Assembly (NCBI GenBank): GCA_973895155.1
Contig: OZ316893.1
Location: 620,860-684,859 of the forward strand
DNA: 64,000 bases
Direction of reading: 5' to 3'
Origin: Marsupella aquatica
Taxonomy: Eukaryota; Plantae; Marchantiophyta
Positions 6,745-58,250 of this stretch are shown here, piece by piece (position 1 is the stretch's first letter; every line of letters starts with the position of its first letter). The notes below the pieces were generated by a model. That model saw only the letters and a program-made list of their open reading frames with translations, had not been told where the DNA came from and did no database searches. Made by a program: the position numbers and the translations under genes.

Positions 6745-7290
6745 AGATTCCAAATGATGTTGATCCCATCTCGGGGAGGCTCTTCCCATCTCGGAGAGGC
6801 TCTATGAGATTCCAACCCAATGTTGATCCCATCTCAGAGAGCCTCTCCAAGATTCCAACCTTAAATGATCTCATCTCGGAGAGGCTTTTCGAGATTCCAA
6901 CCCAATGTTGATCCCATCTTGGGGAGGCTCTCCGAGATTCTAACCTTAAATGATCTCATCTTGGAGAGGCTCTCCGAGATTCCAACCCAGTGTTGATCCC
7001 ATCTCGGAGAGCCTCTCCAAGATTCCATCCCAGTGTTGATCCCATTTTGGAGAGGCTCTCCGAGATTCCAACCTTAAATGATCCCATCTTGGAGAGGCTC
7101 TCTGAGATTCCAACCCAGTGTTCATCCCAACTCAGAGAGGCTCTATGAGATTCCAACAATTCTTGGAGACTTTGTTGACCAATCTAGGAGAGGCCTCCAA
7201 GATTGACACAAAATAGGACGTCAATCTCGAAGAGGCCTCCGAGATTGATTAAAAAAAAGGGTCAATCTTGGAGAGGTCTCTGAGACTGTC
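6745..7290. repeat. Tandem array of ~41-43-bp units with palindromic core ATCTCGGAGAGGCTCTCCGAGAT
   Basis: gatcccatctcggagaggctctccgagattccaacc(caatgtt/ttaaat) is repeated about 12 times. Confidence 0.92.
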
Positions 7291-7300
7291 CAGAAAAATG

Positions 7301-7347
7301 TTAGTGACTGATATCAGTCACTAATAACTGATGAAATTGCTCCTCTC
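7301..7347 (-). mobile_element. Terminus of a non-autonomous relative of the 39-58 kb Mutator-like element
   Basis: Contains the perfect 24-bp palindrome TTAGTGACTGATATCAGTCACTAA (7301-7324). The reverse complement GAGAGGAGCAATTTCATCAGTTATTAGTGACTGATATCAGTC matches the large element's left end GGGGTCGTGTACTTCATCAGTTATCAGTGA...GTGACTGATATCAGTC at the same 12-nt offset. Confidence 0.7.
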
Positions 7348-36769: not shown

Positions 36770-39123
36770 CAGTCTGAAGACAAAAAATTGTCAGCTGGTA
36801 CAGGCCGCTCCACAGAAACCTCAACATGAGCATATTCATCTATTCGAAGGCCAAGAGCAAAAGCTGTTGCACGGCTCTTTCCTATCACTTGCACAGAAAG
36901 AGGACTGGCCTTGAGTTGCTTCTTGACGCTAACTCCATCCTGTGAACCCAACAATTATGTGAGAAAAGCAAATCACACGTGAAGACTCAATTACCTCTCC
37001 TGTTAATGAATCCAGATCAAAAATTATCAACAACATACACCTGGCAGGCTGACTCAAAACACAAATAAACAGAAGCGATATATAAAGGCTACAAGATATA
37101 GTACCTGCATTGCATGGTCCACCATTAAAGTTTGAATCTGTTTTCAAAATATGTGTCAACTTGAGCAAAATTAGGGACACAATGAATCACTTTAGCAATG
37201 TTTGCTACCTCCACAACAATATAAGGCACTTTGGATCTTTTGTAAAGTGCTTTTCAGCTTGTAGAGGCTGTCGTGTCTTCATCAACCCATTGGAGCTTTG
37301 TGCAGTGCAATAACTTCCAATCTCCATCCCTTGGCAGCTTTTCCATCATTCTAACAAATGCTAGATGCTTCATGATCTTATTGCCACCCTCATCAATGAC
37401 TTCACAAGAAATCAGCAACCTCAGTTGACCATAAGATGTTACAGGATCAACGCCAGCTTCTTCCATCTGAAGAAAGACGAATCCAAACCATTCTTTACCA
37501 TGGAAATTTCTGCAAGCACGGGTGTACATTGGCCAATCTCCAAATCGAATGCCTTCCCCAGCAGGCACTGCTAAGCTTTTCCAAATTTGTATTATCTCAG
37601 GAACTACACAGTTCTCATCATTCAAGTGCATAACAAAGGCTTCTCTCAGGTGCAGTTGTATTTCTGGTTGACACTGAAATAGTTCACTCACTTCTACAGG
37701 CACAAAGTCATTGTTACTTGCATCAAGCCAACTCAATGTCAACCTTATATCCTTTCCAGATAGGGTGATCTGTCCTGTCAATACAGCCTGCACATATCAA
37801 ATCATAAAGCACATGCATAAGTGCCTACAAGACATCCTTTGTAAAGTGACATGTGTTGCTACACAGAAAGTACAAATTGAAAGTGTAGCAGAAGTGGGAG
37901 GGAGGTAAGGGGAATAGTACTCGGTCCAGTGCAGTAACATCTTCTGCATGCACTCTTAAGTCTTCTTGACAGCTCACTTCGTCTAGTAAAATTCTAGTCC
38001 TCTGGCTATGCCTTGCTATTTGCCCCATGAAATTCCTCTTGTTGCTATGTCTGTATGGAACCTTCATGAGGGCAATGTGAAGATGTTCGAATATACCTGT
38101 GTCATATTCTAAAGGCAACCCACATCGTTTGATACAATCTTTCAGGTGACTCATGGCATGGACTTTTACAATGTTGAAACTTGACTTCTACCAAGTTTTA
38201 GCGTGTTTTATCATCGATCCTACTGCTTTTTTCATTAACTGATCCATTTGATTCAAGGACCTCTCAGAATGTTGTTTACTCTGGAATGCTAGCAAATACC
38301 AATCTATGAAGTCCACAAAAACTCAATGAGCAAATTTGGAATGATGCCAAGCAAACAAAATACCACAACCTGCATAACAAATTTATGCTCGAATCCATGA
38401 AAGTTAGCATTGCTTTGAAAGTAACCACTTTGGTTACTCCCAGGCAATCTAAAGGAAGCATAACGACATTCCTTGTGTATTTTCTGGAGTCTTCTATCAA
38501 GTTCTTGCATAGGTTTTTTCACAAGGCTCTGGGAAGCAGCAGCCGATCTCACAATGCCCACTAGAGTCTTAAATACACCTAGTATGGACTGATGAAGACC
38601 GTCTAATTGTATGCATCGATAGGGATTTCCATACAGCAAATCACCTCCACAAAATCCCCATAGAGCACACTGCAAGACATCACAAGAAAAAAAATCACTC
38701 ACAGTTGACAAAGAGAAGAATAACTGAACTCATTCAAAACTCCCTTTGCACAATCAATGCTCATCTCAGTAAGAAGTGCTTACCTGTACTGGATAAATTG
38801 ACTGCTCCTTAGACATCTGTTTCTGATCTTGCACAGAAGACTGCCGCATCTCTTCTAAGATTGCTTCCATTCCCTTCTCATCCCTGTAAGAAAACCTTCT
38901 TGCAACATTGTTGAGGGATTCTTTTGGACAGAAACAACAACTGCATGGATAATTTGACTTGTTTGTATCAAATGTGCATGTGATTCTACTCCCCTCTGTC
39001 TGGTCACAGATATACAGACATAGTCTTGGAAAGACCCACTGGGATTGACCAAATGGGTCTTTCATGTGAACTCCTGTATGACTTGTAGCCTTCAATGGTG
39101 CCAAAACAATCTCCTCACATTTG
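36770..39123 (-). pseudogene. Plavaka-type (EnSpm-related) transposase, 3' part, multi-exon and disrupted
   Basis: Motifs IVLAPL..GVHMKDPFG...VFPRLCLYICDQTEG..CSCCFCPK, NPYRCIQLDGLHQSILGVFK, ELDRRL and FNIVKVHAMSHLKDCIKRCGLPLEYDTGIFEHLHIALMKVPYRHSNKRNF match the Plavaka transposase pattern. GT-AG introns are present. The 3' boundary is approximate. Confidence 0.82.
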
Positions 39124-39689
39124 GGGGTCGTGTACTTCATCAGTTATCAGTGAGTTTCATCAGTGACTGATATCAGTCCAACACCGGAACTCAGCAAATC
39201 AGCTGAGATGAATTCTTCTGGGGCACAACCCAATCGCAGTCCGCGCCATTGTCGGCGCCTCTTTGAGGTTGGATCGGGTACTTTACTTCGACCATTTCTT
39301 ATGTCGGCTGCCTCTCTGACATTAAAGGAGAATATAAAGTTTCAATCTTGGCGGCCTCTCTGAGATTTCCTCGAAGTTCAGTTGAATCTCAGCGAGCCCC
39401 GCCGAGATTCAACTGAAATTCGAGGAAAAAAAAAACTTCTCACACAGGGTCTTCGATATATCATGGGGTGTCGCTACTAAATCTCAAAAAGGATCCATAC
39501 AACACATCGTACAACAGAGTCCATACTCATCTCAAAGACCCTCGCCGACTTATCCAGGAGAACAACACGGGGTCCAGCGTAGAAAGTAACCTTTGGAGGA
39601 AATTTTTATTTTACTTCGTATACAACATGTTGCTCTGTTGTGAAATATTCACAAATTGAATTCACAAAGGCAATCCATCGATCCTCTAT

Positions 39690-40945
39690 CTACAAACTGA
39701 TCGTCTGGCAGATTAGGTCTACAATAATCTTTTGTCGTATAAGCAGTACATGTTTAGGGTCAACCGCCAATACAGAGCCTCTAGAAAGACGCTCCATGTA
39801 CATTATGACATATACTCCACAATTGTAACTATCGGGTTGGGCTGGAATATCGTCGCGGACGATGCGTTGCCATTGTAATGGCGATAAGTGGGGACAACTG
39901 CGCAAGCGGGACAGGTCATGGAGAAACCGACCGACATTCACCAAATCGTCGCATTCCGATGCTTCGCCTCCAATGGGATCGAGCAAATGTAGTTGCTGCA
40001 AAGTAAAATCGACCACAGCTAGTACCCAATGTTTTGGCCTGTGGATGGGGATTATAATGAGGTCGAATGAAAAGACGTCAATGCCCTTCACAAATGCCAA
40101 CGCTGCGTTGAAGCTGTACGCAGGATGCGTCAAGACATTGTAAAAATGTGTGGGCAAAAGCATGCATTTGGGTTTTGCAATGACCTCTGCTCTACGCTCC
40201 AATAGAGGAATGTAAGCATTGATGATGTCACAAGTGAGCCATTTTTTTGCCCTCAAGCATTTGAAATCTTTTCTCTTCAATTTTAAGTCGCCGAGGCTGA
40301 CTAGGACTTCATCTTGGTCCCTGTTGGAGTCCAATGCTTCTTTGACTATGGTCGCAAGTATGGCGGGTTGATGTCGTTGTGCAGGCACCCCCTGATTCGG
40401 TCGTTGGTGCACAGGCACCCCCTGATCGACTCCTTGCTGGGCAGTCACTACCTCGTCGACTGGTTGTTGTGGCTCAGTTTGCTTCTGAGCTGCAATGAAG
40501 GTAAATTCACCCAAAAATTACTCTTCGGAATTGGAGCTTGACAAACTTATGCTTGCATGGTGAGTTTGGAGACTATCACTATCACTTCCTACCGAGCTAC
40601 TCTCATCCGATTCAGTCTCTTCTGCCCTATCATCGACAAATTTGAGAGTCTTCCTTGTTCTCTCTTTCACAAAATGAGCAACTCTTTCTTCATGATACGT
40701 ATCAGCGTAGCACGGTAGGCTTGACTTCTCCGGAGAGAATAATGCCAAAGCTTCCTCCCAAGCGAGCTTCACAAGTCGTCTGTCCTGTGTGTCCCATTCC
40801 TCGGTTGCCGACTCGGTGGTCCTGTCGGGAACTGCTACTAAGTTATACTTAAATCGAATCATGTATTGCGCCGGAATAGACGGATCACAAGAACGAATTT
40901 GTGAGGCGATGTGGACACCCCAGATAATCCATTGAGTCGCCTTTT
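39690..40945 (-). pseudogene. Ulp1/SENP-like C48 cysteine protease
   Basis: WLTCDIINAY, THFY, IIPIHRPKHWVL, LLDP and QPDSYNCGVYV give an intact His/Asp/Gln/Cys set. ORFs 40518-40862 and 39690-40514 are in frame across one TAA. The 5' boundary is uncertain, and this may be the last exon of the upstream gene. Confidence 0.9.
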
Positions 40946-41059
40946 GAGATAGATCTCAGAGAGGCTAGCCAAGATGTATTTTTGTCCCTCCAGACGCATC
41001 TAAGGCCCTACGTGGACTTGCCAGTAGAAGTTGACGTGGCCAGGCCACCCGGGATTCAT

Positions 41060-41500
41060 TTGTGCGAGGCCCGCCGACATGCATCTCAGAGAGGCCCGCT
41101 GAGATGGACTTGCCTGGAAATCTGAATATGCCCGGGCCAGATGCGATTCCTCTCGGCGAGGCCCACCGACATGCATCTCGGAGAGGCCAGCCGAGATGGA
41201 CTTGCCTGGAAATCTGAATATGCCCGGGCCAGATGCGATTCCTCTCAGCGAGGCCCGCCGATGTGCATCTCGGAGAGGCCAGCCGAGATGGACTTGCCTG
41301 GAAATCTGAATATGCCCGGGCCAGATGCGATTCCTCTCGGCAAGGCCCGCCGACATGCATCTCGGAGAGGCCAGCTGAGAGGGACTTTCCAGCAAATCTC
41401 AAAGTGCCCGGGCCAGATGCGATCCTCTCGGCTAGGCCGGCCGACATGCATCTCGGAGAGATCAGCCGAGATGGATTTGCCCAGATGGAGAGCCATCTCG
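41060..41500. repeat. ~5 copies of a 92-bp tandem unit with palindromic motifs
   Basis: gcatctcggagaggcc recurs at 41081, 41173, 41265, 41357 and about 41447. Confidence 0.92.
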
Positions 41501-41565
41501 GAGAGTCCACTGAAATACTATGGGACAATATTAAAATCATTGAAGGGAAACGGTAGTAAACTCAC

Positions 41566-44500
41566 ATGAAGGCTTTTTATTCTTGCGCTTTTCTGGATTG
41601 GATTTTCGACGATCCACTGCCTCCTCTTGCTCCGTTAGAGGCACTCCAACGAACTCTGTCATCGTGTCTTCCGCATAAGATTTGAAGTACGGATAGGATT
41701 CGGTCCCAAAGACCATCCGCCCACAGTTCTCACCAGCCTTAAAGATAGCCCCGAAGTGTGCATTGAACGTGACAACAGTTCCCCCTGGCTTAGTTGTATA
41801 TTCTATTATACATTGGAGTGTAGCTGGAGACAAGGTGCCACCAAAATCATCAATGGTCTCATTCTGACCCGTTGTATAGTTAGTTAGCCCGTTCCTCAAC
41901 TTCATATCAAGCTCGACACTGATTGGCTTCACGTCATCCTTTGGGCATACCTCGGCAGACGATTTAAATCCCCAAAGGTCTAGCTTGAGATATTCACTCT
42001 AGACGTACAGAACAAAGTCAGTGATGAGTCTTTCTGAGTACAAGTCACCGAAAGAACATAAGACAAGAATGGAGTTAAATCTATTAGACTTACCCGCTTT
42101 CGAGTCGTGAAGTCGAAGGTGGGTGTGGCGTTCCAGATGAAAAAGGTGTCTTTCAGCACCCAATTGGTCTCTTCGTAATTGAGACTGTCACAAAGTACTG
42201 CGGGGTGGGCAACCGAAGCACTATGCACTATGCCAAACAATCCCTCATCATCGAGGAAAACTCGCACAAAATCCTCAACCCGACTGAGGTCGTCTGGCCG
42301 GAACAAATTCCACAATGGGATGTTCCCATCCGCGTGCATGCGGGTGTCTGATCCCATTTGAATCAGAATCAGATTTGCACCAGACCTTGCAGGCTTCCCG
42401 TTCTTTAGCCAGCCTTCTGCAGCCAAACCACCCCGCCTAAGCTTTCTGCACCAGTCTCTAAAACGGAGTACCACAGCCGGTTCTTTACTGTCATTGGCAG
42501 CGTCAAAGTAAGTTTTGAAAAGATACGGAGACCATTTAAAATAACAATGCCTGAGCGGGGAAGAAAAGTTATCGGCGCTTGAACGCCGAACTCCAACCAC
42601 TTCTGTGCCATCCGACTTCGGTTTGCCTTCAACGTCCTCTTCGTAATTTGGGCCATCCGTTGGGGCCTCATGTTGGATTGTCGTGGGTGGAACCTCTATT
42701 GGGCTGGGCGGGGGTTGTGGTATGGTGCTAGGCGGGGGTTGCTCTATGGGGCTGGGCGGAATGTCTTCAAGCTCAGTGTCACGTGCTTTTGCGCGGTGAG
42801 GTTTGGGCCTCGTTGTTTTGGTCTTTTTTGCAGCCTTTGTCTTTGGCCTTGAGGATAATGGCATCCGTTTTGGCGCCGGAGTATCAGACTCACGCCCCTC
42901 TTGTTTGTCTTCTCCTTCGTCCTCTACCCGTTCGTCTTCTCCTTTGTCCTCTACCCGTTCATCTTCTCCTTCGTTATCTACCCGTACGTCATCTGAATGA
43001 TCCCCTCCTTGGGTTGCGTTCTCTCCCTGGGATGCGTCATGCTCTTGTTCCTGCTCGCTTTGTTGGTCCAGAGGCTGGTCTACCATTGGCTCTGTCGAAG
43101 GCTGCACGGTTTGTTGCTCCACTTGCTGGTTGCCTTGTTGTAGTGTAGCCGGCTCTATCGTTGGTTCTGCAGTTGGTTCTGTAGCCGACTCTATTGTTGG
43201 CTGTGGAGCCTTCTCTATAATTGGCTTTGAAGCCACTTCTACAGCCTTGCTTTTTACAGAACCTGGTTCCTCCGGTATCTCCTTCATACCTGGATAGATT
43301 GCAAAGCAATGGGGTTATTGATCCCAAGCTTCTCCGCGAGCCTCGCCGACATGACATCCAGACACTTGACATTATACTTCATCTGCAAAGGTCCGGACGA
43401 CATTTGGCTATTCTTCTCAGCGAGCCTCGCCGAGATGAGATCCAAGGGTTCGGACGAGATGCGACTGAAACTTGTTTGTTCTCAACGAGCCTCGCCGAGA
43501 TGAGATGCAGTCTATCTCAACGACCCCAAAATTGGTTCAGTACTATGTTAGCAAACCCAGCCAAGATGTAGTTCCAAATGAAACCACTATGCAGTGCGAA
43601 AGGAATCGAGTAATACCTGATGTTTTTCTTGGACTGGTTAGCGAGTCAGACTGACTGATGTCGCTCGATGGTTCCTTCTCAACCTTCCGTTCACCTTCTT
43701 TTCTGGCCTTCTTCCCGTCATAGGCAGGGTCAGTTGGGATAAGGGTCTCCACCTCTGTTGCCTCCGTTACTGAATCTGACAGTTGTCGCAACTTTGTTAT
43801 ATCGTAGTAATTACTAGGTTCCTGTGCTTCTTTGAGCAGGTCTGCACTATCCTTCTCGACAACCTCGAGAAAAGTGTTCCAATTGTCATACTCCATGTAC
43901 CATGGGCAGTTCCTCCGTTCCCAATCCGAGAATACTCTGCCATGAGGCATGCGACCATCACATGGATACATGCTAAGGCTACCTGTAGCCTCCATCCAAG
44001 ATCTAATCGCCAATGGTAGTTGTTTCAACATCGTTGCATTCATGTTCTCCTGATGTATGAGAAATCTTGTCACGCACCGCTTTGTTCGCTTAATCCACGC
44101 TTCCCGAAACGCCAATTTGGTATTCCCTTCATTCCAAATGTCACCGCCTACTTTTAAGGATTTCTCTTGCACATAAGATCGGTAAAGCTTTCTATAAAGC
44201 TCAGCAAATTCCTCTCGCGTTCCGCTAAAATTGCCAGGCTGGTAGGCCTTCTCAGCAAAATTGGTCAACAAGATACAACCAACATAGTCGATGTTACACT
44301 ACATTGACCACACTGCTAGCCATGATCTAACCACTGAATCACTATTGCTACGTGGATGGTGATACCTACTCCTATCTTCCTCCGTTCCAAAATGAGCCTT
44401 CAAGAGTTTTAATCTGCACTCTGCAGTTAACCAAGCCCCAGAAAACAAGCGGATCCGATCCAATCCAACCTGCACATTCATGACACCCTGCTTGGCCTCC

Positions 44501-45776
44501 TTTGCCAACTTGTGATAGAGCTGTCGATATGCCGGGATGAATTCCAAACCATTGGCTGGATTCACGCAGGCTGCGAGCTTGGGGAACTTAGTGTCCCAGC
44601 TCTTGCACGCAGCAGTAATCATTGCCTCAGTCTCATGCTCAAGTCTCTTGGCATTCCACGGGTGCCCATGACCTGCGTCTTGTGCCATTCCTTCGAAATA
44701 TTGATTCGCCCCGCTTCAATGTTTGACCAGCTCATGATGTACACAGCTGCCTCTTTTGTCATGTTCTTGGAGTACCAAGTCTTCCCGTGGCCACAATTTC
44801 GAGCCTTGAGGAAACCCTCCAACGTCTCCTTGGACATAAGCGAACTGTACTCCTCCAATGGAGTGTTCAACAGCTTCGCCACCCAATCGGCGTCATTGAA
44901 CCATGACGTCCTCATGACAGTCGCGCTTATCCTGGACACGGCAAAGAATGTTCTTAGGTCTAACATTCAAACAGGGCAATCTTTGACAGATTGCCAATAG
45001 GGTATTCACACAAGGGAAACGATATTGTATACCTGTTGTTGCAAAATATGAGTTACTTACGAGTTCAGAGCGTGCATTGCTTGCTCAACCTTCTTGAATC
45101 CGTCCTTTCCAGCGTTCAAAAGAGAGAATCTGACACACGGATGGTACTGCGGTTGATCTGGAAACTCCTCCGCAACTGCAGACCAAGCTGTGTACCTATG
45201 GTTTCCGTCAAAAACCCAAAACATCTTGTCCTTGAGCATTTTGAAGTCCTCTGACACATCGCACTCTTGCTCAAACTGCTCATTGATTTCAGTCCACAGC
45301 GAGTCCCAATAGGGCTTGAACTCTGCCACTGTCCTCGTCTCCCCTGCTTCATTGAACTCAATGATGTGGAACTCGCTGAGCTTTACAACATAGCCGCTCT
45401 CTCTGAATCCTTTTTTTAGTTTGACCACTGACTCATCATGAAGATTCCTGACGGCCTCCATTGGCATGAGCCGGCATAAGGGGATCCGGGGAGGATCCTT
45501 TTCAAACTTCGTCTCATACTTGGAGACGATCGACTCCCAAGCTCCCTTCTCTACAATATCTGCTAATTCCACTGCTCCTATTGGCTCGAACGATATTTGC
45601 TTTGGCTCAAACTTCCTCCTTGAGTCCACTGACTCCACAAGGGGACCACCTTGTGAGCGTGTTAGTCGAGATGTCACTGGCAAAGGGGACAAAGACCGTT
45701 GTTTCTTACTCCGCTGAGAAGTTCCGCTATCAACAGGTCCAGCGACAGAACCAGCCGAGTCTTTCCTCTTCGCCAT
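41566..45776 (-). pseudogene. Spliced gene: ParB/Srx-like N-terminal domain, helical region, acidic/Pro-rich linker and beta-class N6A/N4C DNA methyltransferase-like domain
   Basis: Phase-compatible exons 45776-45061, 44931-43617, 43289-42094 and 41998-41566. ParB-like: IPLCRL..VR..VVKLKKGF..GY...FWVFDGNHRYTAW. MTase-like: ANLILIQMG (motif IV position), FLDDEG, SEYLKL, LSPATLQCIIEYTTKPGGTVVTFNAHFGAIFKAGENCGRMVFGTESYPYF (motifs X/I/II). There is one frameshift near 44710 and a TAG at 44299-44301. Confidence 0.72.
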
Positions 45777-46324
45777 TGTGATCTAAGATTACATGAGAAA
45801 ACATTCAAGAATTACTTCACAATAACCATACATCTCGGTGAGCCCCGCCGAGCAAAAGTTTTGACATGTCGAGCTTGCAACATACATTCAAATCGTGTAG
45901 ACAGTCATGCAGTGAACAAAAGATCCAACCTCAGAGATGGGTGAAGCGCCGCGCTTGAAACTACAACCCGCTAAGAGTGATTCGACCACCGCCGACTGAG
46001 ACCTTCAAATCACCCTTTGCAGCACAAAGCTTGAAACTTCGAGAGTCGACCGCTGCCAAGCTCAAACCAAACTGAGACCTTCAAATCACCTTTGCCAACC
46101 AGCACAGAGCTTGAAACTACGAGACTCGACCGCCGCCAAGGTGAAGCCTTCAAAACACCTTCGCAAACCAGGGCACACGACCACACTTGCCGAGAATAAG
46201 TGGAAGAGAGGAAAGCCAACGTGATTGGAAGACTGGGACGAAGAGCGGAGGGGACCTAGGAAGAGCGAGGATGCGTGAGGAATAACGGGGAGTGAATGAG
46301 ACGGGGAGTGAATGATGAAGAGTG

Positions 46325-46710
46325 AGGAAGCGCAGGGATAAGTGAGAACGACGTTGAAAGCCCTAACGAAGCGTGAAGAGCAAGAGTGACGAGGAAGAGT
46401 AAGGAAGAAGGACCCTCGTACCGCACGTACCGCACCGGTGACGAGGAAGAGTAAGGAAGGACCCTCGTACTGCACGTACCGCACTGCACGGAAGTACTCC
46501 ATGGATACGAGAGATCCCCGGTACCGCACCGCACACAAGTACATGGATACGGGAGATCCAAACTATACTAGAGAATGTACATCTTGTTAATTAACGGGCC
46601 AAACAAGAAAGTACGCGGCCAAACAAGAAAGTACGTAAGGTTCTAGGGTTTACGGCCCAGTACGGGGGTATGAGATTTAGGGTCCAAATCTCAAAGACCC
46701 TCGCCAACAA
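46325..46710 (-). promoter_or_regulatory. Promoter/5'UTR block upstream of the ParB-MTase gene, duplicated in inverted orientation at 53760-54057
   Basis: aagcgcagggataagtgagaa...gtaccgcacgtaccgcac...catggatacggga...aaacaagaaagtacg...tacggcccagta matches the reverse complement of 53760-54057. It contains telobox-like (TAGGGTTT) and site II-like (GGCCCA) motifs. Confidence 0.65.
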
Positions 46711-47620
46711 TTAATTGCGGCCCATACTGAGACGTGTCAACATCTTAGAGCCTCGTCCCAAAGAGGGAATGGGGGCCCACAATACGAGTCCAAATCTCAA
46801 AGACCCTCGCTGAGAATGGATAGCGGGCCAATACTGAGACGTGTCAACATCTCGGAGCCTCGTCCCAAAGAGGGAATGGGGGCCCATAATACGAGTCCAA
46901 ATCTCAAAGACCCTCGCCGAGAATGGATAGCGGGATTGACAAAGACCTCTAAACCCTAAACCTATATACCCTTGGGTGGGGTATACAAAGCTGCAGTGAG
47001 ACAGCACCGATAGATCTCGGAGACCCTCTCCGAGATGGCGTGGTGTGCCACATCTGGCAGTCATCCTATTTTGAGACACTCGCAAAAGAGGATTGTGGAC
47101 AAGGAAGTTGACAATCTAAATCCAAAAGACCCCTGCTCCATGTCAGAGACCCTCACCGACATAGAAAGGCGTGCCCCAAATGTCTTCACTTTATCTAGGA
47201 GATGAAGAACTTCAGACACCTTGTACTCTCGGAGACCCTCTTTGAGAAGGAGTAGTGTGCATGAAATGGCAATGCCTCTAAACTCTTGGACCATATCACG
47301 GGAGGAAAGGTAAGGCAGATCAGGCATCGTGTCTCTCAGAGACCCTCTCCGAGATGGAATTGAGAGGCACTAGTCCCCCACCGTGGGACCCAAGATGTCG
47401 GAGACCCTCGCCGAAATGGGACTATGGAACTAGAAATACTTCTCCGTACCATAAATCCATAAACTTTTTACAATTATCCGTACAAAATGACTCGGCAACT
47501 CCAAATTGGGCATTTTTTCCTCTACAATGCTCGAATATATCTCGGAGACCCTCGCCCAAATGGGATTATGGAACTAGAAACGCTTCTCCGTACCATGAAT
47601 CCAATTTTTTTTGCAAATAT
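46680..47620. repeat. Short tandem duplications (~107-bp and ~144-bp units) carrying the GACCCTCGCCGA motif
   Basis: gtccaaatctcaaagaccctcgc at 46682, 46788 and 46895. cggagaccctcgcc.aaatggga.tatggaactagaaa at about 47398 and 47543. Confidence 0.8.
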
Positions 47621-47769
47621 CCGTACATACCGGCGTTTTCTCTCTTTTACAATGCTCGAATATATCTCAGAGAGGCTCGCCGAGTATGATATGCACTCCA
47701 AACAACCGACACCAAACTCTGAAGTAGACCTGCGCCAAGGAGGCAATCTGGGAATCCTACATCCAAATC

Positions 47770-48440
47770 CATCTCAGAGACCCTCGCCGAGTAAGAGACG
47801 GAATCAAAAGTCGATGATGCTCCGACTCGGAGAGTCGATGTTGAACAGTCAATGTTGCAAAAACAACAAATCTTCTACTGAGAAACTCTCGCTTGCACAA
47901 GAGTGTGGGCCCCAGGTGTCCCGAATAGATCTCAGAGACCCTCGCCGAGTAGGAGTAGGGATAAAAAGTCGATGATGCTCCAACTCGGAGAGTCGATGTT
48001 GAACAGTCAATGTTGCAAAAACAACAAATCTCCTATTGAGAAACTCTCGCTTGCACAGGAGTGTGGGCCCCAGGTGTCCTGAATAGATCTCAGAGACCCT
48101 CGCCGAGTAGGAGTAGGGATAAAAAGTCGATGATGCTCCGACTCGGAGAGTCAATGTTGAACAGTCAATGTTGAAAAGTCAACAAATTTCCTACTGTGAA
48201 ACTCGAGCTTGCACAGGAGTGTGGGCCCCAGGAGTCCCAAATAGATCTCAGAGACCCTCGCCGAGTAGGAGTAGGGATAAAAAGTCGATGATGCTCCGAC
48301 TCGGAGAGTCGATGTTGAACAGTCAATGTTGAAAAGTCAACAAATTTCCTACTGTGAAACTCAAGCTTGCACAGGAGTGTGGGCCCCAAGAGTCCCGAAT
48401 AGATCTCAGAGACCCTCGCCGAGTAGTATGGATAAAAAGT
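47770..48440. repeat. ~4.3 copies of a 158-bp tandem unit
   Basis: atctcagagaccctcgccgagta at 47771, 47929, about 48087, 48244 and 48402. Confidence 0.92.
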
Positions 48441-48715
48441 TGATGTAGGGCAAAGAGGGGATCGGGCCCGCACGAGGGATTGTGGGCCCGCACGATGGGA
48501 CTTTCAAGACCACGACGTGCAGAATGTACCACATCCACACATTGCAGAAATGTACCTTCTTGGCGGCTGCTGGCAATTAGGTACCTTCTTTGTGGTACAA
48601 TTCTCGTCGTTGCGGGTCATATGCTCGTTCTACGCACGTTGTATCGTTATAAGTAGCGTTCCGGGTCATACGATTTCTCTACGCACGTTGTCCAGAACGG
48701 TATTCTTGGCCGTAA

Positions 48716-51700
48716 TTGGTACGTACAGGTGCGTTAACGCTGAGCCTCAAAGTTTGTCGTTTTAAGGGATGTCAGATCATTCCCTATGTGGATTCGGGAA
48801 ACATGGCCTCTCTTGTGATTATCACATCTTTAACGGGGGATGTAGTTGTTTTTCATAATTCTAACGTTGACATTGTCCGAGTGACTAAGGAACATGAAGT
48901 AGCGAGCCGTTTTGGTTTGAAGGTAGGGGATTTCATGATTTATGAGGAGAGCGAGGACGGGTTGTCCACGTCTGCTGAATCCAAAGGAGATGGAGATGAG
49001 CGAGAGTGGTACCTGAAGTATGGCGCGTGTTATATTCTCTGTAGAAAGACGGGGTGCATACCAAGTGCACACCATGTCAAAGAGGGTCTCCGACATGAAG
49101 AACCTTCTCGGACGAGTACCCCTCGGTCGAATTCATTTCGAATGTGGGAGGATCGCGGAGATGGTGATACTCCACCAAAGGAGACACCTCGATCCAGTGG
49201 GATTCATGTCAGAGGGGGTCTTCGAGATGGTGAACCTTCACCAATGAATACACCTCAGTCAAACACATCCCAATTCTGGGAGGATCGTGGAGCTTGTTAT
49301 CGTCAACCAAAGGAGACACCTCGTTCAAAGGCATCCATCCTCCGTGAGGGTCTCCAAGATGGTGATTCGGTATGGAAGGATGAGTTCCTTGTCAGTGTTG
49401 TTCATGCCATGTTGCACGGAAAAGGGACCTCTCGTTGTGTACAAGCTGCTCGTAAGATTTTGAGCATGAAATTGCCCGAGAGAGTTCTACGATTGCCAGA
49501 ATTCTATGATGGAGACCATATTTTTGAGTTGCCACCCTTTACTGGTCCATACTCTAAGGGTTGTTTCTTCTTTGGGATGGAGCGCAAGAACGATTGTTAC
49601 ATGTGGAGCCGGTTAATTGAGATGGGAGCAAACATTGGCCCAAAGCTGAACAACAATAGTCACTCGTACAAGATCCAAAGCGTCAAGTGTTTGGGTTCTC
49701 TGCGATGTCTGCATGAGGATTGTGAAAATTTTCAACAACGACAAGAGCACAATTCTGCAAAGTGGACCCAAGATCGAGCAGGCACAAATGAGCTACCTTT
49801 CCCTGTTGGACGCGATGTTCCCCCGTCGAGTGTAATTTGTACGTACTGCAAGAGGCCTCCCAGGTGTATAGCTCGATGCCCAAGTGAGATGTACTATATC
49901 ACTCCAACCAAGGATGACGTGAATTATTGTCACAAGTCTCGTGTTGCGATGCATATAGGAAATCACACCCATCCTGCAATGTTCACGCATAACAAGGATC
50001 AACGATCAGTTGTGCACAATCTTGTGGAGGTGGAGCTGAAGAGGAGTCCGACTGCTATGCCGTCTGTTATCAAGGGCGAGGCAATACAGAAACTTAAAGA
50101 TATCCTTGAAGACCCAGTGGCTGAAATGGTGACATCTGAGGAGGCAAGAGACCTTAATGAAATGTTGTCCATCCTCGGTGATGAATCCATTTTTCGCTCT
50201 ATGATCAGGAGCATCAAGAAGTACAGTCATGTGTCGTCTGATCTTAACATGATACTGGAGATGCGGAAGGTGACTGCCTTTTCGTTTATCCAAAGTGTTT
50301 TGTTCCCATCCCAGAACGTGGGAACAGACGAGCGACCACACATTTTTAAAATGAGTACAGAAGGTCCTGGTTCCGGGGTGGACCTTGTTCGAAGAATGCA
50401 GCCAGGCGGGGATCTCGAGCATTCATGGGTGATGTCTGATGTGATGCATCGTATACTTGACAACAAATGGTGCACCATGTCAGCACACGTGTATGACCAT
50501 TTCTATCGGGGCCTGTGCACAATCTTTGTTTGTGAGTTGGTTTCAGAAGATAGTGCGGCATTACAAACTGCATGGAAGGTCATGAGGAGGGTGTGTGGAG
50601 AACATGGGCTTATCAATGTTGAATTTTGTGGCCTTATGGCTGATAATGCTGCTGCTGGGTGGAATGCAATCTGCAATGAATTTTGGGATGGAAAGGTAAA
50701 TACCCATAGAGAGAGGTCTGATGCATTTCACTGGGCCCAATCAGTGGAGAGGGTGCAGAAGCACATTGTCCCACAGAAGAGATTTGAGCATAAGGAAATT
50801 CTAGATTTGCTTCGACATGCCGACAACATAGTTCTCGCATTTCGAGTTTTTGAGAAGCTTAAGACGTGGTGGAGCGAGGGCAACGCGCTACCCGGAAAAG
50901 CGAAGGAGCTCACAACGTGGATGTCTTGGTGGATTGTTCGGTTTTCTCAATGGGGAAATTTTTTGAGACTCGTAAGTGTCTAACGCTTTTCCTCTATATG
51001 CATGAAATCCGTCAAATCTCGGCGAAGCTTGCTGACATGGGGTCAGTTGAAGGGATGTTCAATTGGACGACCTCTATCTGTAACGCTTTCTGTCAAATAT
51101 CGGCAGCGGTCGCCGAGATATGTTTCCAATTGTATTGACATTCTTCTTGGAAATTGTAGGAGATGGACAGAGAAAAGGCTGCGCTGATGCCTAACCACAG
51201 CGGGGCAGAGTCGGTGCATGCGGTCATGCGGAAATGGTCCTCTAATAGAAAGGTTGGGTTAGTACAGTCCTGTAACTTAGATGCAACTTGAGCATTGAGC
51301 CAGGTTGCATCTTTGGAGCACTACCAACACAGTGGGAGGAAAGGGCGGGGACCGAGCCTATTTGAACTCCGACTTCGAGACGCTACTGCTGTTGGGAATG
51401 TGGAATCTTTCTTTTCAAAATTGAACACAGTTATAACTCAACCAGAATTGCGTAAGTTCTCGTCAGCGGACCCACTTAGCGGAGATGTAGAAACGGTTTC
51501 TATGAAGCGCGGGAAGGCCGTATCTGGCGCTCATATGGTAGTAGAAGATTCACACAGGCCTGACATTGTTCTGGTAACGAGACCAAAGAAGAGGAAGTTC
51601 AAGGGGGTTGCAAACAGGGACGCAACCTTAAAAAGCACAGATCCTGAAGTTGTGGATCTGTCTTCTGATGGGGGTAGTGGCTCGGGCGAGCCTGAAGTTG

Positions 51701-52638
51701 TCATTGTGGAACCTCTCCAACGGACGACAAGGTCAACCCCACGTCCGGAGCCCGTCAGAAGACATGTTTAGGAAACTGATTTGGTGCCAGGGACGTTATT
51801 TCTGGCCCGCATCTCAACATGTCGTAAGAGTCCCGGTTGTAGAGGTGCGTTCAAAGGCAAGGAACGGGGAGTATGTGCTCGATTTATTAGAGAGGCAGGA
51901 TTGAAAGTGAGCGGATTGGGTGTTGTTGGTATTTGTTGGCTGGCGGGGAGTAAATTTAATGAACCAGGTGTTCCATATCCGTATTGGTTTTGTCCGAACA
52001 ACCAGTGTTGCAGAAAATCCTCTTTGCCTTTCATTACCGGCGTGCTACCACCACTGCCTTCAAAGTTTCCGGTCTCTCGTGGTACTAATCTTACAGAAGC
52101 AGAGGTTATTTTCCTGCACAACAATGGAGTGGATGTCATTTCTGGTGGTGATGTTATGAATGAGGTAGTGAGTGCTGGCGACATCATCATGGATTTGAAC
52201 ACATACCCAGAGCGGCCAGATCCTACAAGGCCTGACGATCGTGGTACTCGCCGCAATGGCCAGGCAAGGCGAAGGAGGTCAGACCCCCCCAAGGATGCAT
52301 TAGCACGTATCCAAAATGCTAAGACCGAGGCCATTGTGTGCACGTCAATGAGGAGAATTGAAACAGGGAATGCTACCGGCATAAGGCTCATGGTGAACAA
52401 CACTAGCAGGGGGCGAACTTCAGTACATTGCGTCCAGATCTGTGTCTTCCCAAGTTGCTCCTGCAAGGATTTCATGTATAGGGAGTCGATGGGAAGAGCC
52501 TACTTCCCGTGCAAGCACTTGTACTGGTGCTTTGCAAACATCTGTAAAAGGGACATTGACACGGATCAATGTGTAAACCAACCTATCTTGACTCTAACTG
52601 AGGTCCGCGGCCTTGTAGCAAATACCAATATCGTCTGA
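48716..52638 (+). pseudogene. Mutator-like transposase: GCM/WRKY-like zinc domain, MULE DDE core and SWIM zinc finger
   Basis: KCLGSLRC..C...CTYC..C...HIGNHTHP (GCM-like). WVMSD, FCGLMADNAAAGWNA, FHWAQS and, after a phase-0 intron at 50972-51159, GAESVHA (third catalytic E). SWIM: CSCKDF...CKHL. In-frame stops TGA at 51289 and TAG at 51769. The real start may be the ATG near 48803. Confidence 0.85.
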
Positions 52639-52644
52639 CATTGT

Positions 52645-52802
52645 ATGTCGGCGACCCTCGCTAACATTGTCTCCTTCTTCAGGAGATCATCTTGGCGACC
52701 CTCGCCGTGTCATCTAATCTTGGCGACCCTCACCGAGTCATCTAATCTTGGCGACCCTCGCCGACGTAACTCCTGAGTCATCTTGGTGACCCTTGCCGAC
52801 AT
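52645..52802. repeat. Cluster of ~5 TCTTGGCGACCCTCGCCGA palindromes just after the transposase stop
   Basis: Read directly from the sequence. Confidence 0.85.
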
Positions 52803-52880
52803 GGACTTCAGGGTTGCGGGCCTAGGGTTAGGGGGTTAGGGTTTATAATATGACCGTTATAAGTATAGAATTACGGATTT

Positions 52881-53610
52881 ATGTTGGCGAGGCTCAGATT
52901 CGACCCTAAACCCGCTTGGGTCCTTGGGATGAGGGTTGTTGCTTTGTTCGAAACTATGGATCCTAGTGCAGGCGGACGTGAGATGGTGATTGATAGGACA
53001 CAAGAAAGGCTTACATCGGAATTGCAGACGCTTCTTGCTAGTAAAGAACAAGACCGTGCTCGCATCTGGAATCTCCCCTCCTCTCGTTATCCCCTACGAT
53101 GTCGCCCTCCAGCCGGTAACTTGATTCCGGGATTGCCTGATGATCTTGTGGAGTTGCACATATGGCCCCGGATCCGATCAATGTTGGAAGATGTTGTGCT
53201 TGTGGATGCTCCAGTGAGGAATATGTGCCTGATGGTGCGGTCTGTTGCGCATATCAACAGGAAATGGAGATATTTGATAACAAACTCCATAGCATGGGCT
53301 GCAATGACTACTGCTATGATATTTTGTGCCACGAGATGACCTGAATTGACACCTCACTTCTTTCGTGAGTCAATGAGAGCGTTCCCCACCGATTGATGTT
53401 TGGGCTCGGTTGGCTGATGATATCTTAAATAAGAGGATCAATTCCTGGTTATTATGTGATTCGGAGGAAGTGGACTGTTATCTGTCGATATGGTGTTCAG
53501 CAAGAACGAGTAGATGCTTGGAAAAGGACTCGTCTTGATAATTGGTACATTGAGCAGGTTCAGGAAAGACTTGATCAAGGTGTAAGTGTCAATCGTGACA
53601 ACTTTTAGGT
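52881..53610 (+). pseudogene. F-box-like protein 1 (disrupted)
   Basis: LIPGLPDDLVELHIWPRI...VAHINRKWRYLI resembles a plant F-box motif. Stops appear after 53339. Confidence 0.6.
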
Positions 53611-54158
53611 GCACTTCATGTCATTATCGGTTTAGTGTATAGAATACGCAGGAGTACGCCACACCTGGTTCAGATTTAGAGATCATGGACTAATTTTGTA
53701 CGACTTTTTTGAGTAATAAATACTTGGCGACATGAGATCCTTCCTATCTTTCACTATCAATTCTCGGCAAGGGTCTTTGACATTTGGACCGTTTAGGGTT
53801 TACCCTAAACCCTAAACACGTACCCCCTATACTGGGCCGTAAATCCTAGACCCTTGCATACTTCCCTTGCGTACTTTCTTGTTTGGTCCGTTAACAAGAT
53901 GTACGTTGTCAAGTATAGTTGGGATGTCCCGTATCCATGACATAGTTTTGTGCGGTGCGGTACGTGCGGTACGTGCTCCCTTCTTCCTTACTCTTCCTCT
54001 TCCTCTTCACTCTTTGTTAGGGTTTTCAACGTCCTTCTCACTTATCCCTGCGCTTGGTTGAATTTCTACACTTTGACATTCATCGCACTGGGCAGAAATG
54101 ACATCGCTGTTCATTTCTTAGGGAGAGCCTCCCCACGAAGGCAGACGTTCTACGCCCG

Positions 54159-55100
54159 TTGCTCGACCGGCGCGCAGCCCCTACAAGGTCAAGATCAACC
54201 CGCAGACTTTGCAGGTGGAGACCGTCGAAACCAATATGTCAATATCGCTGTCGTTATAAAGAGGAGGGCACTTTCTCTATTCTTCATCCGCTTGTTTGGT
54301 TGGTTGGTTGTTGTGTTCAATCTGTTGGGTGTCATCTTCATCTCACGGGTGCTTCAAGCGGCTAAACTTGCTTCAAGCGGCTCTCCAACATGGAAGGATC
54401 ATACACGAAGAGGCGTTATCATGAAAAGTGCGCTACACGCCTTGATAAGTTTACGGCGACAATTATTGAGCTGAAATTGAAAGCTAATTTTGATCGGCTC
54501 TCAATATGGGGGACTGTTGGGGAGCCTATTCCGGAGGAAGCAGAAGAAGCAAAAAAGCAGAGTCTCATCCCTGGCCTCCCGGATATGCTGACAGGGGGAC
54601 ATGTTTGGCCTCTACTTAGAAATGCATTTGAGTCTGCAAATGCACATGGCACTGATGATGATGCTACCTTCAAGACGATCGACAATATGCGCATATTGTC
54701 CAGAGTTAGTAGGAAATGGAGATTCCTTGTGACTCACTCCAAGGGATGGGCAGCGTTAAAAGTGGTGAAGGACGTCATTGAAAACATGGATGACAACCGA
54801 CATTGGAATTGTCACTCAACCGCGTGTACGTTCCGTGTTCTCTTACGATAAATTCCGCCTATTGATGCCCTCTCTATGATGTCAGTTACATCACTCAAGT
54901 CTTGGGTGGCAAACTACGTCTGGAGGACGGAGATATATGAGAGGGATCTGTATGATAAGTTCTTCGATGGAGATGTGCTAGGAAGAGTCCAGGACTGGGT
55001 GGAGAACAGGTTAACCCCAATCTTATGGTGTGACAATGTAGAAAAATTGCCGAGCAACAATCCGGACAGTGGCTACGGGCTTTATTCTAGTGATATTTGA
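54159..55100 (+). pseudogene. F-box-like protein 2 (paralog of gene 1)
   Basis: LIPGLPDMLTGGHVWPLL...LSRVSRKWRFLV..SKGWAAL. ORFs starting at 54159, 54390 and 54876 share one frame, separated by single TAA stops. Confidence 0.6.
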
Positions 55101-55403
55101 CTGTGAAGGCACAGGAGGTCATCGCGGATAGCATTGTCGATAGGGTCCACTAGCCACTAGGTCATGTCATGACTTGAACTCATCACGTAGTAATGAGGTT
55201 AGGGGTAGCATCATGGACTAATTTTGTACGACATTTTTCAATAATAAAAAAGCTTACGTTATCGTACTATTGGTATGGTCTTTTTTCCCTCCCGGCGGCC
55301 TCGCCGACATCCAAACGGCACCGTTGGAATTCGGCAAGGGTCTCCAAGATGTAGTGTTCATGAACGCTACTCACCTTGGAGACATTCGCCATTTGTCGGA
55401 TCT

Positions 55404-56180
55404 GAGCGACCCTCGCCGAAATGGCACTGAAACCGGATGTCAGCGACCCTCGCCGGAATGGGACTGAAACCAGATGTCAGCGACCCTCGCCAAAATGGCA
55501 CTGAAACCAGATGTCAGCGACCCTCGCCGAAATGGCACTAAAACCGGATGTCAACGACCCTCGCCGAAATGGCACTGAAACCGGATGTCAGCGACCCTCG
55601 CCGAAATGGCACTGAAACCGGATGTCAGCGACCCTCGCCAAAATGGCACTGAAACCGGATGTCAGCGACCCTCGCCGGAATGGGACTGAAACCAGATGTC
55701 AGTGACCCTCACCGGAATGGCACTAAAACCGGATGTCAACGACCCTCACCGAAATGGCACTGAAACTGGATGTTAGCGACCCTCGCCGAAATGGCACTGA
55801 AACCGGATGTCAGCGACCCTCGCCGAAATGGCACTGAAACCGGATGTCAGCGACCCTCGCCGGAATGGGACTGAAACCAGATGTCAGTGACCCTCGCCGA
55901 AATGGCACTGAAACCGGATGTCAGCGACCCTCGCCGGAATGGCACTAAAACCGGATGTCAACGACCCTCGCCGAAATGGCACTGAAACCGGATGTCAGCG
56001 ACGCTCGCCGAAATGGCACTGAAACCAGATGTAGTGACCCTCGCCGGAATGGAACTTCGCAGGAATGAAACTTTGTCGGAATGGAACTTCCCAACCGGAT
56101 GTCTGCGATCCTCGCCGAAATTGCACTTACCAAGAAAAAGTAAGAAACCGGATCTCAGAGACCCTCGCCGAAATGGAACT
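55404..56180. repeat. ~17-18 near-identical copies of a 37-bp unit GTCAGCGACCCTCGCCGAAATGGCACTGAAACCGGAT plus degenerate copies
   Basis: The period is 37 bp (for example 55441 to 55478). Confidence 0.95.
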
Positions 56181-56591
56181 TAGGATCATAATTTTGATCG
56201 TTGCCGAGTGAGAGAACCACCAGATCTCGGAGACCCTCTCCGAGATCTACTTACACCCTAAACTCTTTGTCGTCAAACTAACAAAGAAGTCGCTGGCCTC
56301 TGATCTCAGAGATCCTTGCCGAAATGGGATTACGTAGTAACTGTGGAATCATACGCTCATACAGTGCCAAAAACTAATCCTGACAGTCAACCGTTGTAGG
56401 TCAAATCAACATTAACTCATTTGTTGGCCAAACCTGGAGTGTGTGTGAAAAGACATGTACCCGTTATTACGAGCGGACGTTGTTGTCCCTTCAACCGTCT
56501 AGGGATAGGATACCAATAATTGCTGGATTTTTAGTGGCAATGATGATGATTGTCTTGTACGTTGCAGGTCACCACAACACGGACTAGATAG

Positions 56592-57470
56592 ATGGAGGTG
56601 AAGGCAATGTGGCAGTGCGGTGCGCCCTACAATTTTTCACCTTCTTTCTCATCAGGGCAGAGCACCATGGCCAGAGTGGAGTCTGTGATCGGTGTCCAAG
56701 ACAGGCACACACCCACTGTCTCCGCCGTTTTGGACGTCGTCCCGCAGAAGAGGAAACGAGGTCGGCCGAGGAAGCATCCCATCATAATATCGATAGCGTT
56801 ACCTGATAATGAAGCTCCTCGGCTCTTGACAGAGAAGAGGAAACGAGGTCGGCCAAGGAAGCATCCCATCGTAATGTCGATCGCGTTACCTGATAATGAA
56901 GCTCCTCGGCTCTTGACAGAGAAGAGGAAACGAGGTCGGCCGAGGAAGCATCCCATCGTAATGTCAATCGCGTTACCTGATAATGAAGCTCCTCGGCTCT
57001 TGGCAGAGAAGAGGAAACGAGGTCGCCCCAGGAAGCATCCTATTGCAATGGCTACCACACTGCCAGACGGTGATGGTGAAGCTCCTCGTCTGTTGAGATC
57101 TACAGATAATCGCAAGGCTGTTGGTGATTCAAACAGAATGAACTAGACGTTGAAGATGCCCGTAGACGGTGCAGCTAAGTTTCGCGGTCGTGACAACACA
57201 ACCAGCCACAAGGACTCGCCTAGTGCCGAGTGTTCAAAATATGCTGATGTTGACTTCGTGTTTGCTAAAGAGTTGCTGAAGAGTTTGGATGCAGAGATCG
57301 CGGACAGCAAGTCAGACTTCCAGAAGCTTATGAGCCTTCATGTAGATGTGCAGGCTAGGCTATCTGAGATGTGTGACAACGTCCAGAATCTATGGGTAAA
57401 AATGAATGACCTCCTCTCAGCAAGAGCTGAATTGGGGGCGTTCACTGGAGTGAATGTACAAAAAACATGA
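56592..57470 (+). pseudogene. AT-hook repeat protein with C-terminal coiled coil
   Basis: Four KRKRGRPRKHP AT-hooks sit in 87-bp (29-aa) tandem repeats. ORF 57150-57470 continues in frame after the TAG at 57144-57146. Confidence 0.8.
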
Positions 57471-58250
57471 ATTTCGTGTACACATTTACTTGTAGGAAAT
57501 AGCGGAACGTTGTAGCCTCAAAGTTTTGATACATTTTGGTAGTTACTGAATCGTTCGTCGGTAATGATTTTATGGAGTGTCAAATTAAACTGGACGATGA
57601 TAGTAGAAATCCATCTAATCGGCTGTGTAATCCAGATCTTATGAAACATTTTGTGCAGATTAGGCAGTTTAGTTATACATTACTGAATCTATCGTGGTAA
57701 AGTCGGCGACCCTCGCCGAGAGCATTTTCCTCGGCTTGACAAGTAGGAGTAGCAGTCTCTTGACGATGTCTTCTCGGCGAGCATCGCCAAGGAATGACAA
57801 TGAATTCATGCTACCTTTTCTTATAAGCTCTCTTATTGGGCAAACATCTTGATCTTCTGGTGATCGCAACTGATCCCAAGGATTCTACACTGCATCACAA
57901 TTCTCGTTGATTACTTCTTTCAAGGCTGGCATCACCAGCAGCCTAGTAGTAGTATCTCGATGATGTCTTCTCGGCGAGCATCACCGACGAATTACAATAT
58001 ATGGGTTGTAAAATGTTTTTCTAGTAAACATCATGTCGACCTTATGTCGGCGACCTCTTTGACATTCTGGCTATGGTCGCCTAAAATTGTACGGACACCG
58101 CCTTTATGCTTATTGCTTTGCGTTTCAAGACCGTAAACCCTGAATCAGAGATGTTTGCGAGTTTGCCGAGATCCCCGGGCCAATCTGAGCACAGTCGCCG
58201 ACATGCAGGTAAGTGTTAAGCGCGACGAGCAATGACTGATACCTTTACTC

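Follow-up and report, generated by a model that had tools for sequence, protein, structure and literature searches.

The window analysed here, a 64,000-nucleotide stretch of the liverwort Marsupella aquatica (contig OZ316893.1, positions 620,860 to 684,859), contains a 19.1-kb Mutator-like DNA transposon in which a single 23-bp pseudo-palindrome recurs throughout the non-coding DNA. This palindrome has a fixed spacing, avoids exons, lies upstream of all five predicted genes and is kept in two distant relatives, and the element that carries it is rich in CpG. The element borders are marked by a 10-mer common to positions 39114 and 58250, which can be read as the 9-bp target-site duplication typical of Mutator/MULE elements, with a 10-bp reading of the same sequence also fitting; the limits of 39340 and 58200 proposed in an earlier note on this DNA are replaced by 39124 and 58250. 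The insertion interrupted the open reading frame (ORF) of a Plavaka-type transposase, with Plavaka matches on both flanks that break off at LFHKC and resume at KCEEIV. A joint between 39113 and 58250, as expected of an empty site, was found in contigs from four of four runs; since Plavaka is itself repeated, this empty site may derive from other Plavaka copies. The Plavaka ORF, on the minus strand at 36000-39114 and 58260-59500, is multi-copy with near-identical empty sites, yet strongly CpG-depleted. Compared with each other, the element ends are identical in 13 of 60 bases (23 of 60 with the best offset), so that long terminal inverted repeats (TIRs) are absent, as in the non-TIR members of the Mutator/MULE group. 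Between 1075 and 3055 contigs per run align to the element, which is therefore a member of a multi-copy family. Its borders and predicted genes are as follows, with the strand given where one was assigned.

39124..58250: Mutator-like DNA transposon without terminal inverted repeats, 19.1 kb, ends G...C
39115..39123, plus strand: left target-site duplication TCACATTTG, 9-bp reading
58251..58259, plus strand: right target-site duplication TCACATTTG, identical on both sides
39690..45776, minus strand: gene 1, predicted, five exons; ParB/Srx-like N-terminal domain, helical region, degenerate N6/N4-methyltransferase-like domain and Ulp1 protease
48803..52638, plus strand: transposase, two exons; GCM-like domain, D546/D614/H643 pattern and C-terminal SWIM-like motif
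52955..55105, plus strand: two decayed F-box-like ORFs, the second with an F-box match (E=0.035), the first similar by eye
56592..57470, plus strand: AT-hook repeat ORF (AT_hook 21.5 bits, cut-off 17.4)

The copy in the window is broken in both of its large genes. Gene 1 is frameshifted near 44687 and has in-frame stops near 44299 and 40519, and the transposase is interrupted near 51223 and at 51769; other copies differ by an indel at 44687, and some of the lesions in the two genes are absent elsewhere. We found 389 relatives of the transposase. Its N-terminal domain was modelled with a pLDDT of 84, and the best Foldseek match of the model was the GCM-DNA structure 1odh (rank 1, E=0.074, probability 0.75), followed by NAC domains, with no match below E=0.001. 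This model supports the GCM-like domain that had been proposed from the sequence, and is consistent with the WRKY-GCM1-fold N-terminal DNA-binding domain of Mutator/MULE transposases. The putative catalytic residues are conserved in most of the rows that cover them (D546 in 19 of 20, D614 in 13 of 16, H643 in 14 of 18). Pfam returned no MULE family for the window transposase or for 21 relatives, and a transposase search in metagenome contigs found nothing. In the AT-hook ORF, an 87-bp coding repeat at 56746-57040 gives rise to four AT-hook motifs.

In the gene 1 product, the Ulp1 assignment is firm (Peptidase_C48, E=7e-22 in Pfam), and the sequence DGNHRxxAW is invariant in 17 of 17 aligned N-terminal domains. 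By sequence, profile searches of the PDB detected neither ParB nor GCM, and searches with the ParB-like domain in prokaryote genomes and viral contigs found nothing; the ParB/Srx fold is assigned weakly. The methyltransferase-like domain proposed earlier is supported in its C-terminal half by PF01555 in all seven Atlas rows listed (score 0.93-0.94) and by a best PDB match to M.RsrI (E=0.24); the N-terminal half yielded no match. Its functional motifs are not intact. The SAM-binding motif is altered (VVTFNAHFG aligned to VLDFFAGSG of M.RsrI, in one copy), and no catalytic (D/N/S)PP(Y/F) motif was seen by eye in the translation of one copy. These two changes indicate that the domain is likely catalytically degenerate and inactive.

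The palindrome is the 23-mer ATSTCGGMGA-NNN-TCKCCGASAT, in which a 3-bp spacer separates two 10-bp arms. Within the element, with its ends shifted one base left for this count, there are 59, 67 and 71 sites at ≤4, ≤5 and ≤6 mismatches, against an expectation of 0.03, 0.29 and 2.0 from 100 dinucleotide shuffles (maxima 1, 2 and 8). The remaining 39,340 bp of the window, which lie outside both motif-bearing elements and served as the background in place of the whole genome, hold 0, 0 and 1 sites at the same thresholds. The consensus was derived from the same sequence, which makes the enrichment partly circular, though not at the size observed; the motif described in the earlier note is real, with 67 sites to none (≤5 mismatches). 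The sites of the element and its surroundings, most of them located by matrix scan, are distributed as follows.

39386 and 39529 (39386..39551): 23-bp sites downstream of gene 1
40941..41565: gene 1 intron containing the 92-bp array (two sites per unit); 11 23-bp sites and one 22-bp site
43290..43617: gene 1 intron with four dispersed 23-bp sites (43330, 43414, 43479, 43545)
45777..48802: divergent intergenic region separating gene 1 from the transposase, with 16 23-bp sites, one of them the perfect palindrome at 47014
46682-46934: 107-bp array, in the divergent intergenic region
47771-48445: 158-bp array, in the same region, which also holds a 144/125-bp duplication
50973..51159: transposase intron with two 23-bp sites (51016, 51097)
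52645..52802: 28-bp array and surroundings; four scored 23-bp sites, 153-288 bp upstream of the first F-box-like ORF
53761: 23-bp site between the two F-box-like ORFs
55289..56325: 37-bp array (17.9 copies) with its surroundings; one 22-bp site and 22 23-bp sites, one of the latter being the perfect palindrome at 56224

Only three of the 71 sites are exonic, although predicted exons span 57% of the element, and the deficit persists when the five arrays are collapsed (3 of 36 independent sites, binomial p=1e-9). All three fall in a 132-bp coding repeat in the variable N-terminal part of the transposase, as decayed palindromes at 49074, 49206 and 49338 (49074-49360) that translate as EGL[RQ][HD] peptides; the homologue P0002 has one similar peptide. 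Sites occur in 9 of the 11 non-coding intervals, among them both introns in which dispersed copies had been noticed, and each of the five predicted starts has an upstream site, the nearest lying at 56, 378, 153, 604 and 267 bp. Two side observations concern individual sites. The 23-bp site at 39386 is the centre of a near-perfect inverted repeat with 29-bp arms (39366-39428), and an inverted duplication links 46328-46930 to 53754-54055 with 80-92% identity in pieces. This duplicated upstream module contains AAACCCTA repeats and a palindrome site and precedes both gene 1 (minus strand) and the second F-box-like ORF (plus strand), so that one promoter may have been reused.

The borders of the motif are sharp. 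Among 31 independent sites, the information content is 0.5-1.7 bits at positions 1-23, values that are themselves partly circular, as opposed to at most 0.39 bits in the 25-bp flanks. Scanning the window with the matrix for different spacers gave 88 sites with 3 bp and 11 with 2 bp, no other length from 0 to 8 bp exceeding 3 sites, in addition to nine solitary half-sites. A LEAFY-type site, considered as a candidate, was set aside because wider spacers were not enriched. Both palindromes singled out as near-perfect in the earlier note, at 47014 and 56224, proved to be perfect, and two of the 31 independent sites are perfect palindromes. The arms are complementary at 7.16 positions against 7.12 expected (p=0.42), that is, they show no covariation, as would be the case were each arm matched to a protein and not to the opposite arm. 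This pattern argues for a protein dimer over a hairpin.

The motif is also kept in other genomic contexts. Two homologous loci, L001 and L002, encode proteins with 48% and 51% identity to those of the window, and both contain the same 23-mer in intron 1 after the ParB-like exon, in two copies and one copy, respectively; when these introns are compared with the window, only the motif aligns. In all four runs, contigs pile up on the motif as depth spikes, share about 10 flanking bases and then diverge. Because such contigs leave the motif into other sequence, further motif contexts must exist, and contigs with no match beyond the motif raise the apparent depth at these positions. The motif pattern gave two single matches in viral contigs, both in DNA of 68-69% GC without similarity to the window, which we took as chance. 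The proposal that the motif is a protein-binding site thus gains support from its sharp borders, fixed spacing, lack of arm covariation and presence in two of two homologous loci.

The tandem arrays proved less uniform than had been described. Tandem Repeats Finder identified 11 distinct non-coding arrays in the element, five of which contain the full motif. It is absent from six short duplications of 2-3 copies (five at 45995-46635 and one at 56041), and likewise from five coding repeats. The claim that all arrays carry the motif therefore holds for those of 92, 107, 158, 28 (given as about 30) and 37 bp and fails for the other six, and the supposed array of about 144 bp is an imperfect duplication with spacings of 144 and 125 bp. 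The arrays do differ otherwise in sequence, as claimed: in a linker comparison of nine repeats, 1 of 36 pairs reached p<0.05, and such unrelated linkers show that the arrays are not descendants of one unit. In 7 of 8 arrays the start lies within 6 bp of a motif, and long-unit arrays contain n motifs with about n-1 linkers; in these four arrays the overhangs sum to 1, 17, 22 and 42 bases, compared with linkers of 135, 83, 69 and 121. Duplication or recombination between two existing sites would give this motif-bounded pattern without any need for selection. Such borders suggest that the dispersed sites are primary, and the arrays by themselves do not show selection. The idea that the motif was selected and repeatedly amplified is accordingly half supported, since the arrays are bounded by motif copies and the motif shows no extra conservation inside them. 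At CpG positions, 15 of 36 vary inside arrays in the motif and 10 of 24 in the linkers, in a test on the complete units of six arrays that excluded the 107-bp array for having too few.

A second form of the palindrome marks the ends of the element. This 22-bp form has a 2-bp spacer, and of its seven copies in the element, five are found at a distance of 65-222 bp from an end; none of the 29 independent sites of the 23-bp form lies within 250 bp of one (Fisher p=6e-5, post hoc). The internal 23-bp form makes up 67 of the 74 sites of the element. Further out, the outer 60 bp of the two ends hold 6 of the element's 14 ATCAGT/ACTGAT hexamers, one of them at 58235 at the right end, and three more hexamers lie at 7307-7332, outside the element. 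Three layers can be distinguished in the element, namely terminal hexamers, subterminal 22-mers and internal 23-mers. The features of the ends, and of two related arrays elsewhere in the window, are the following.

39139..39177: cluster of five ATCAGT/ACTGAT hexamers at the left extreme, a candidate transposase end signal
39188, 39301 and 39345 (39188..39366): left subterminal 22-bp palindromes
39249: copy with a 1-bp spacer at the left end
58044 and 58151 (58044..58204): right subterminal 22-bp palindromes, with a weaker copy at 58183 below the score threshold
1826..2222: 34-bp array lying outside the 19-kb element, with 12 23-bp sites in decayed form
6788..7347: 43-bp array (6788-7151) with nine 23-bp sites, followed by three 22-bp sites and an element-like end

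The arrays at 1826-2222 and 6788-7151 together hold 21 motif sites. The end at 7347 resembles the left element end in 35 of 60 bases and has its three 22-bp sites 62-145 bp inside; a target duplication was sought for this end and was not found. Apart from these features, the stretches at 1826-2222 and 6788-7347 resemble the element in neither DNA nor protein, and 6788-7347 is likely a relic or a non-autonomous relative of it. The 34-bp array is flanked by a CACTA-type end at 1812 (1-1812) and a CACTA-type start at 2473, and a LINE-like fragment, recognised by eye, occupies about 3300-6300.

The observed/expected CpG ratio is 0.82 for the element and 0.93 for its non-coding DNA outside arrays, compared with 0.24 in the neighbouring CACTA, 0.41 in the LINE and 0.23-0.35 in the Plavaka flanks; the homologous loci have ratios of 0.67 (L001) and 0.78 (L002). 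Decay of the core CpG is symmetric in the relic arrays (CA 11 and TG 11 of 42 half-sites) and asymmetric in the element (CA 43 and TG 10 of 134 half-sites, a count inflated by arrays; 18 versus 6 at independent sites, p=0.02). Elsewhere in the window, a PPR gene at 23945-26070 has seven repeats of 303 bp, the triplet length of plant PLS-class PPRs. A 32/64-bp tandem array at 29097-29649 is built on the short palindromic core CTATAGCTAG, which is unrelated to the 23-bp motif, and the CpG-rich end of the window (59600-64000, ratio 0.73) contains a 285-residue open coiled-coil-like frame and is possibly another mobile element.

Judged by its sequence, the palindrome is real, and it probably functions as a cis-motif in a transposon lineage that seems not to have been described. 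The open literature, covered mostly as titles and the beginnings of abstracts, yielded no GCM-type Mutator element with a ParB-like/methyltransferase-like/Ulp1 gene, nor this motif. Related domains are covered in the accessible parts of two reports (PMC4738411; PMC1702500), where this architecture is not described. We consider it about as probable as not (roughly 0.48) that an element-encoded dimer, with the gene 1 product as its best candidate, lands on the 23-bp pseudo-palindrome and, in the manner of VANC, maintains the promoters of the element in an active, under-methylated state. In the accessible parts of the VANDAL reports, the targets of VANC proteins are motifs in non-coding tandem repeats, and their binding lifts silencing (PMC5735166; PMC10398659), and it is the VANDAL-like layout that suggests this role. 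Gene 1 is favoured as the source of the binder because ParB-family proteins load on palindromes, because VirB thereby counters silencing, and because the transposase has a candidate end signal of its own. Each 10-bp arm would be read by one subunit of the dimer, and dispersed sites would have come first, with arrays arising later through recombination or slippage involving two sites already present. The 22-bp form near the ends may be bound in a second geometry that helps to hold the TIR-less ends. The methyltransferase-like domain would no longer methylate and would only grip the DNA, while the Ulp1 domain would strip SUMO from silencing proteins.

Several observations weigh against a VANC-like role for the gene 1 product. 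Of the ParB CTP-binding motif, which is GERRxRA in the available part of the source (PMC10786196), gene 1 keeps only the G, one R and the A, as GNHRxxA. Atlas leads for the gene 1 homologue P0012 are mostly DUF3723 (0.94-0.95), with ParB_N in one cluster (0.91, 11%). The predicted model of the ParB-like domain is poor (pLDDT 52), a Foldseek search with this low-confidence model gave no match, and the best wide structural match is sulfiredoxin (Z 2.5, rmsd 4.4, 66 aligned). A DNA-binding domain was identified in the transposase and none among the domains identified in gene 1. As for the motif, non-CpG variation inside arrays affects 16 of 104 motif and 30 of 228 linker positions (p=0.6), and among the contig variants at 46990-47800 (40 of 82 rows), 6 of 39 listed places fall in motifs against 8.9 expected (p=0.19), with three of the six shifting towards the consensus. 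Conservation rests on two homologous loci of about 1.2 kb each, and gene 1 intron 1 of the window copy has no scored site. VANC motifs, as far as they are described in the accessible sources, are 8-9 bp, non-palindromic, co-oriented and fast-diverging, unlike a 23-bp palindrome kept across about 50% divergence. Finally, other stretches of the window are also CpG-rich (0.80 in the PPR gene, 0.73 in 59600-64000), and the element itself could be CpG-rich because its family is young or was acquired horizontally.

A rather unlikely alternative, though the main rival, assigns binding to the transposase. Its GCM-like domain would read the half-site, with the 22-bp palindromes replacing TIRs in end pairing and the 23-bp sites serving self-activation of the element, as in AtMu1 and Spm TnpA. 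This domain is the sole one with a DNA-bound structural relative (1odh), the ends lack inverted repeats, and copies of the 22-bp form are concentrated at 62-222 bp from three ends. It is the outer 60 bp that carry a different hexamer, however, and Mutator transposases bind at about the distance of the terminal hexamers from the ends. GCM1 moreover binds a short non-palindromic site as a monomer, and 67 strong internal sites are poorly suited to end-specific cutting. In favour of such self-activation, the accessible part of one report describes the AtMu1 transposase as binding motifs and hypomethylating cognate copies (10.64898/2026.08.24.746577).

We regard as unlikely a bolder form of the gene 1 proposal, in which a captured bacterial ParB-methyltransferase would act as a nucleotide-gated clamp, loading at the parS-like 23-mers and spreading over 19 kb with a dead methyltransferase and a SUMO protease against silencing, while the 22-mers gather the TIR-less ends, as a eukaryotic counterpart of VirB from Shigella. 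It also appears quite improbable that a host transcription factor binds the palindrome and that the element family gathered sites for transcription. Conservation over about 50% protein divergence would fit a slowly evolving host protein, as would the sites upstream of all five genes and the contigs, present in all runs, that share just the motif and about 10 flanking bases. Against a host factor, the 39 kb of background, host genes included, hold no site at ≤5 mismatches, 20 constrained positions exceed the reach of most plant factors, and the spacer change specific to the ends suggests an element function.

The motif might alternatively have no binding role, being an old small repeat that seeded duplications as microhomology, with its avoidance of exons due to purifying selection on proteins. 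The arrays are the best argument for this account, since 7 of 8 start within 6 bp of a motif, those with long units have short overhangs, and the motif has no extra conservation within them. We hold it to be very doubtful, as it leaves unexplained the identical 23-mers in the otherwise unrelated L001 and L002 introns, the flat flanks and fixed spacer, and the change of spacer to 2 bp at three separate ends (p=6e-5, post hoc). That the palindromes act as DNA cruciforms or RNA hairpins is hardly credible, for although the arms are about 7/10 complementary and two copies are perfect, the arms do not covary (p=0.42) and are conserved in sequence, the spacer is fixed and Rfam gave no match.

The proposed landing of an element-encoded dimer on the palindrome can be set beside several known systems. 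With beta-class methyltransferases, such as DN4MT1 of Marchantia, described in the accessible part of its report as a eukaryotic N4/N6 enzyme of bacterial origin (10.1101/2021.02.12.428880), the element shares an N6_N4_Mtase-like domain in a eukaryote. It differs from them in its Mutator-like host element, its degenerate SAM-binding motif and the lack, by eye, of an SPPY/DPPY-type motif. ParB-linked methyltransferases, and inactive transposon-borne ones known from DIRS1 elements, are covered in the available part of PMC4738411.

As in ParB/parS, and in VirB, a ParB-family anti-silencer that in the accessible part of the source loads at a palindrome (PMC10653881), a palindromic site recurs close to a gene whose N-terminal domain is putatively ParB/Srx-like. 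Unlike ParB/parS, the present case is a eukaryotic transposon; the gene 1 protein is fused to methyltransferase-like and Ulp1 domains, a helix-turn-helix is not among its identified domains (the helical region was neither aligned nor modelled), the GERRxRA motif is altered and the 23-bp site has a spacer. A Pfam scan of the element ORFs gave no ParA-type match. With ParA not found and the CTP motif altered, this is, judged by sequence, not a ParABS system. Should the ParB-like protein prove to be the binder, it would represent a ParB-type palindrome loader in a eukaryotic nucleus, and possibly a tool for keeping a marked locus unmethylated.

Spm TnpA and the AtMu1 transposase, according to the accessible part of the report, are sequence-specific activators that bind clustered end motifs and cause local hypomethylation (10.64898/2026.08.24.746577). 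Motifs are likewise clustered near the ends of the present element; unlike the terminal motifs of those systems, 67 of its 74 sites are internal and of the 23-bp type, the ends being marked by a separate 22-bp type. These two spacer classes suggest how a TIR-less element marks its ends.

The closest comparison is with VANDAL and VANC. Both cases concern a large Mutator-like element with one motif concentrated in introns and intergenic DNA and often arranged in tandem, and in both the motif is common to unrelated non-autonomous elements, AT9TSD1 in the accessible VANDAL reports and the 1826-7347 relic here. Unlike in VANDAL, the accessory gene is ParB-like and methyltransferase-like and the transposase has a GCM-like domain. 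Nor does the motif diverge between related families as it does there, the same 23-mer being present in two of two relatives at 48-51% identity. A Pfam scan of 15 element ORFs gave no VANC-type family, a direct comparison with VANC sequences not having been made. By analogy, then, the element appears to work like VANDAL/VANC, yet it is not a member of that group, as no VANC-type protein was found and its motif is long, palindromic and conserved. Sequence-specific anti-silencing of transposons has been worked out mainly for Arabidopsis VANDAL, Spm and AtMu1; to these the Marsupella element adds what looks like an independent second case from a different plant lineage, whose site is long, conserved and sharp in its borders and has only three or four candidate binders.

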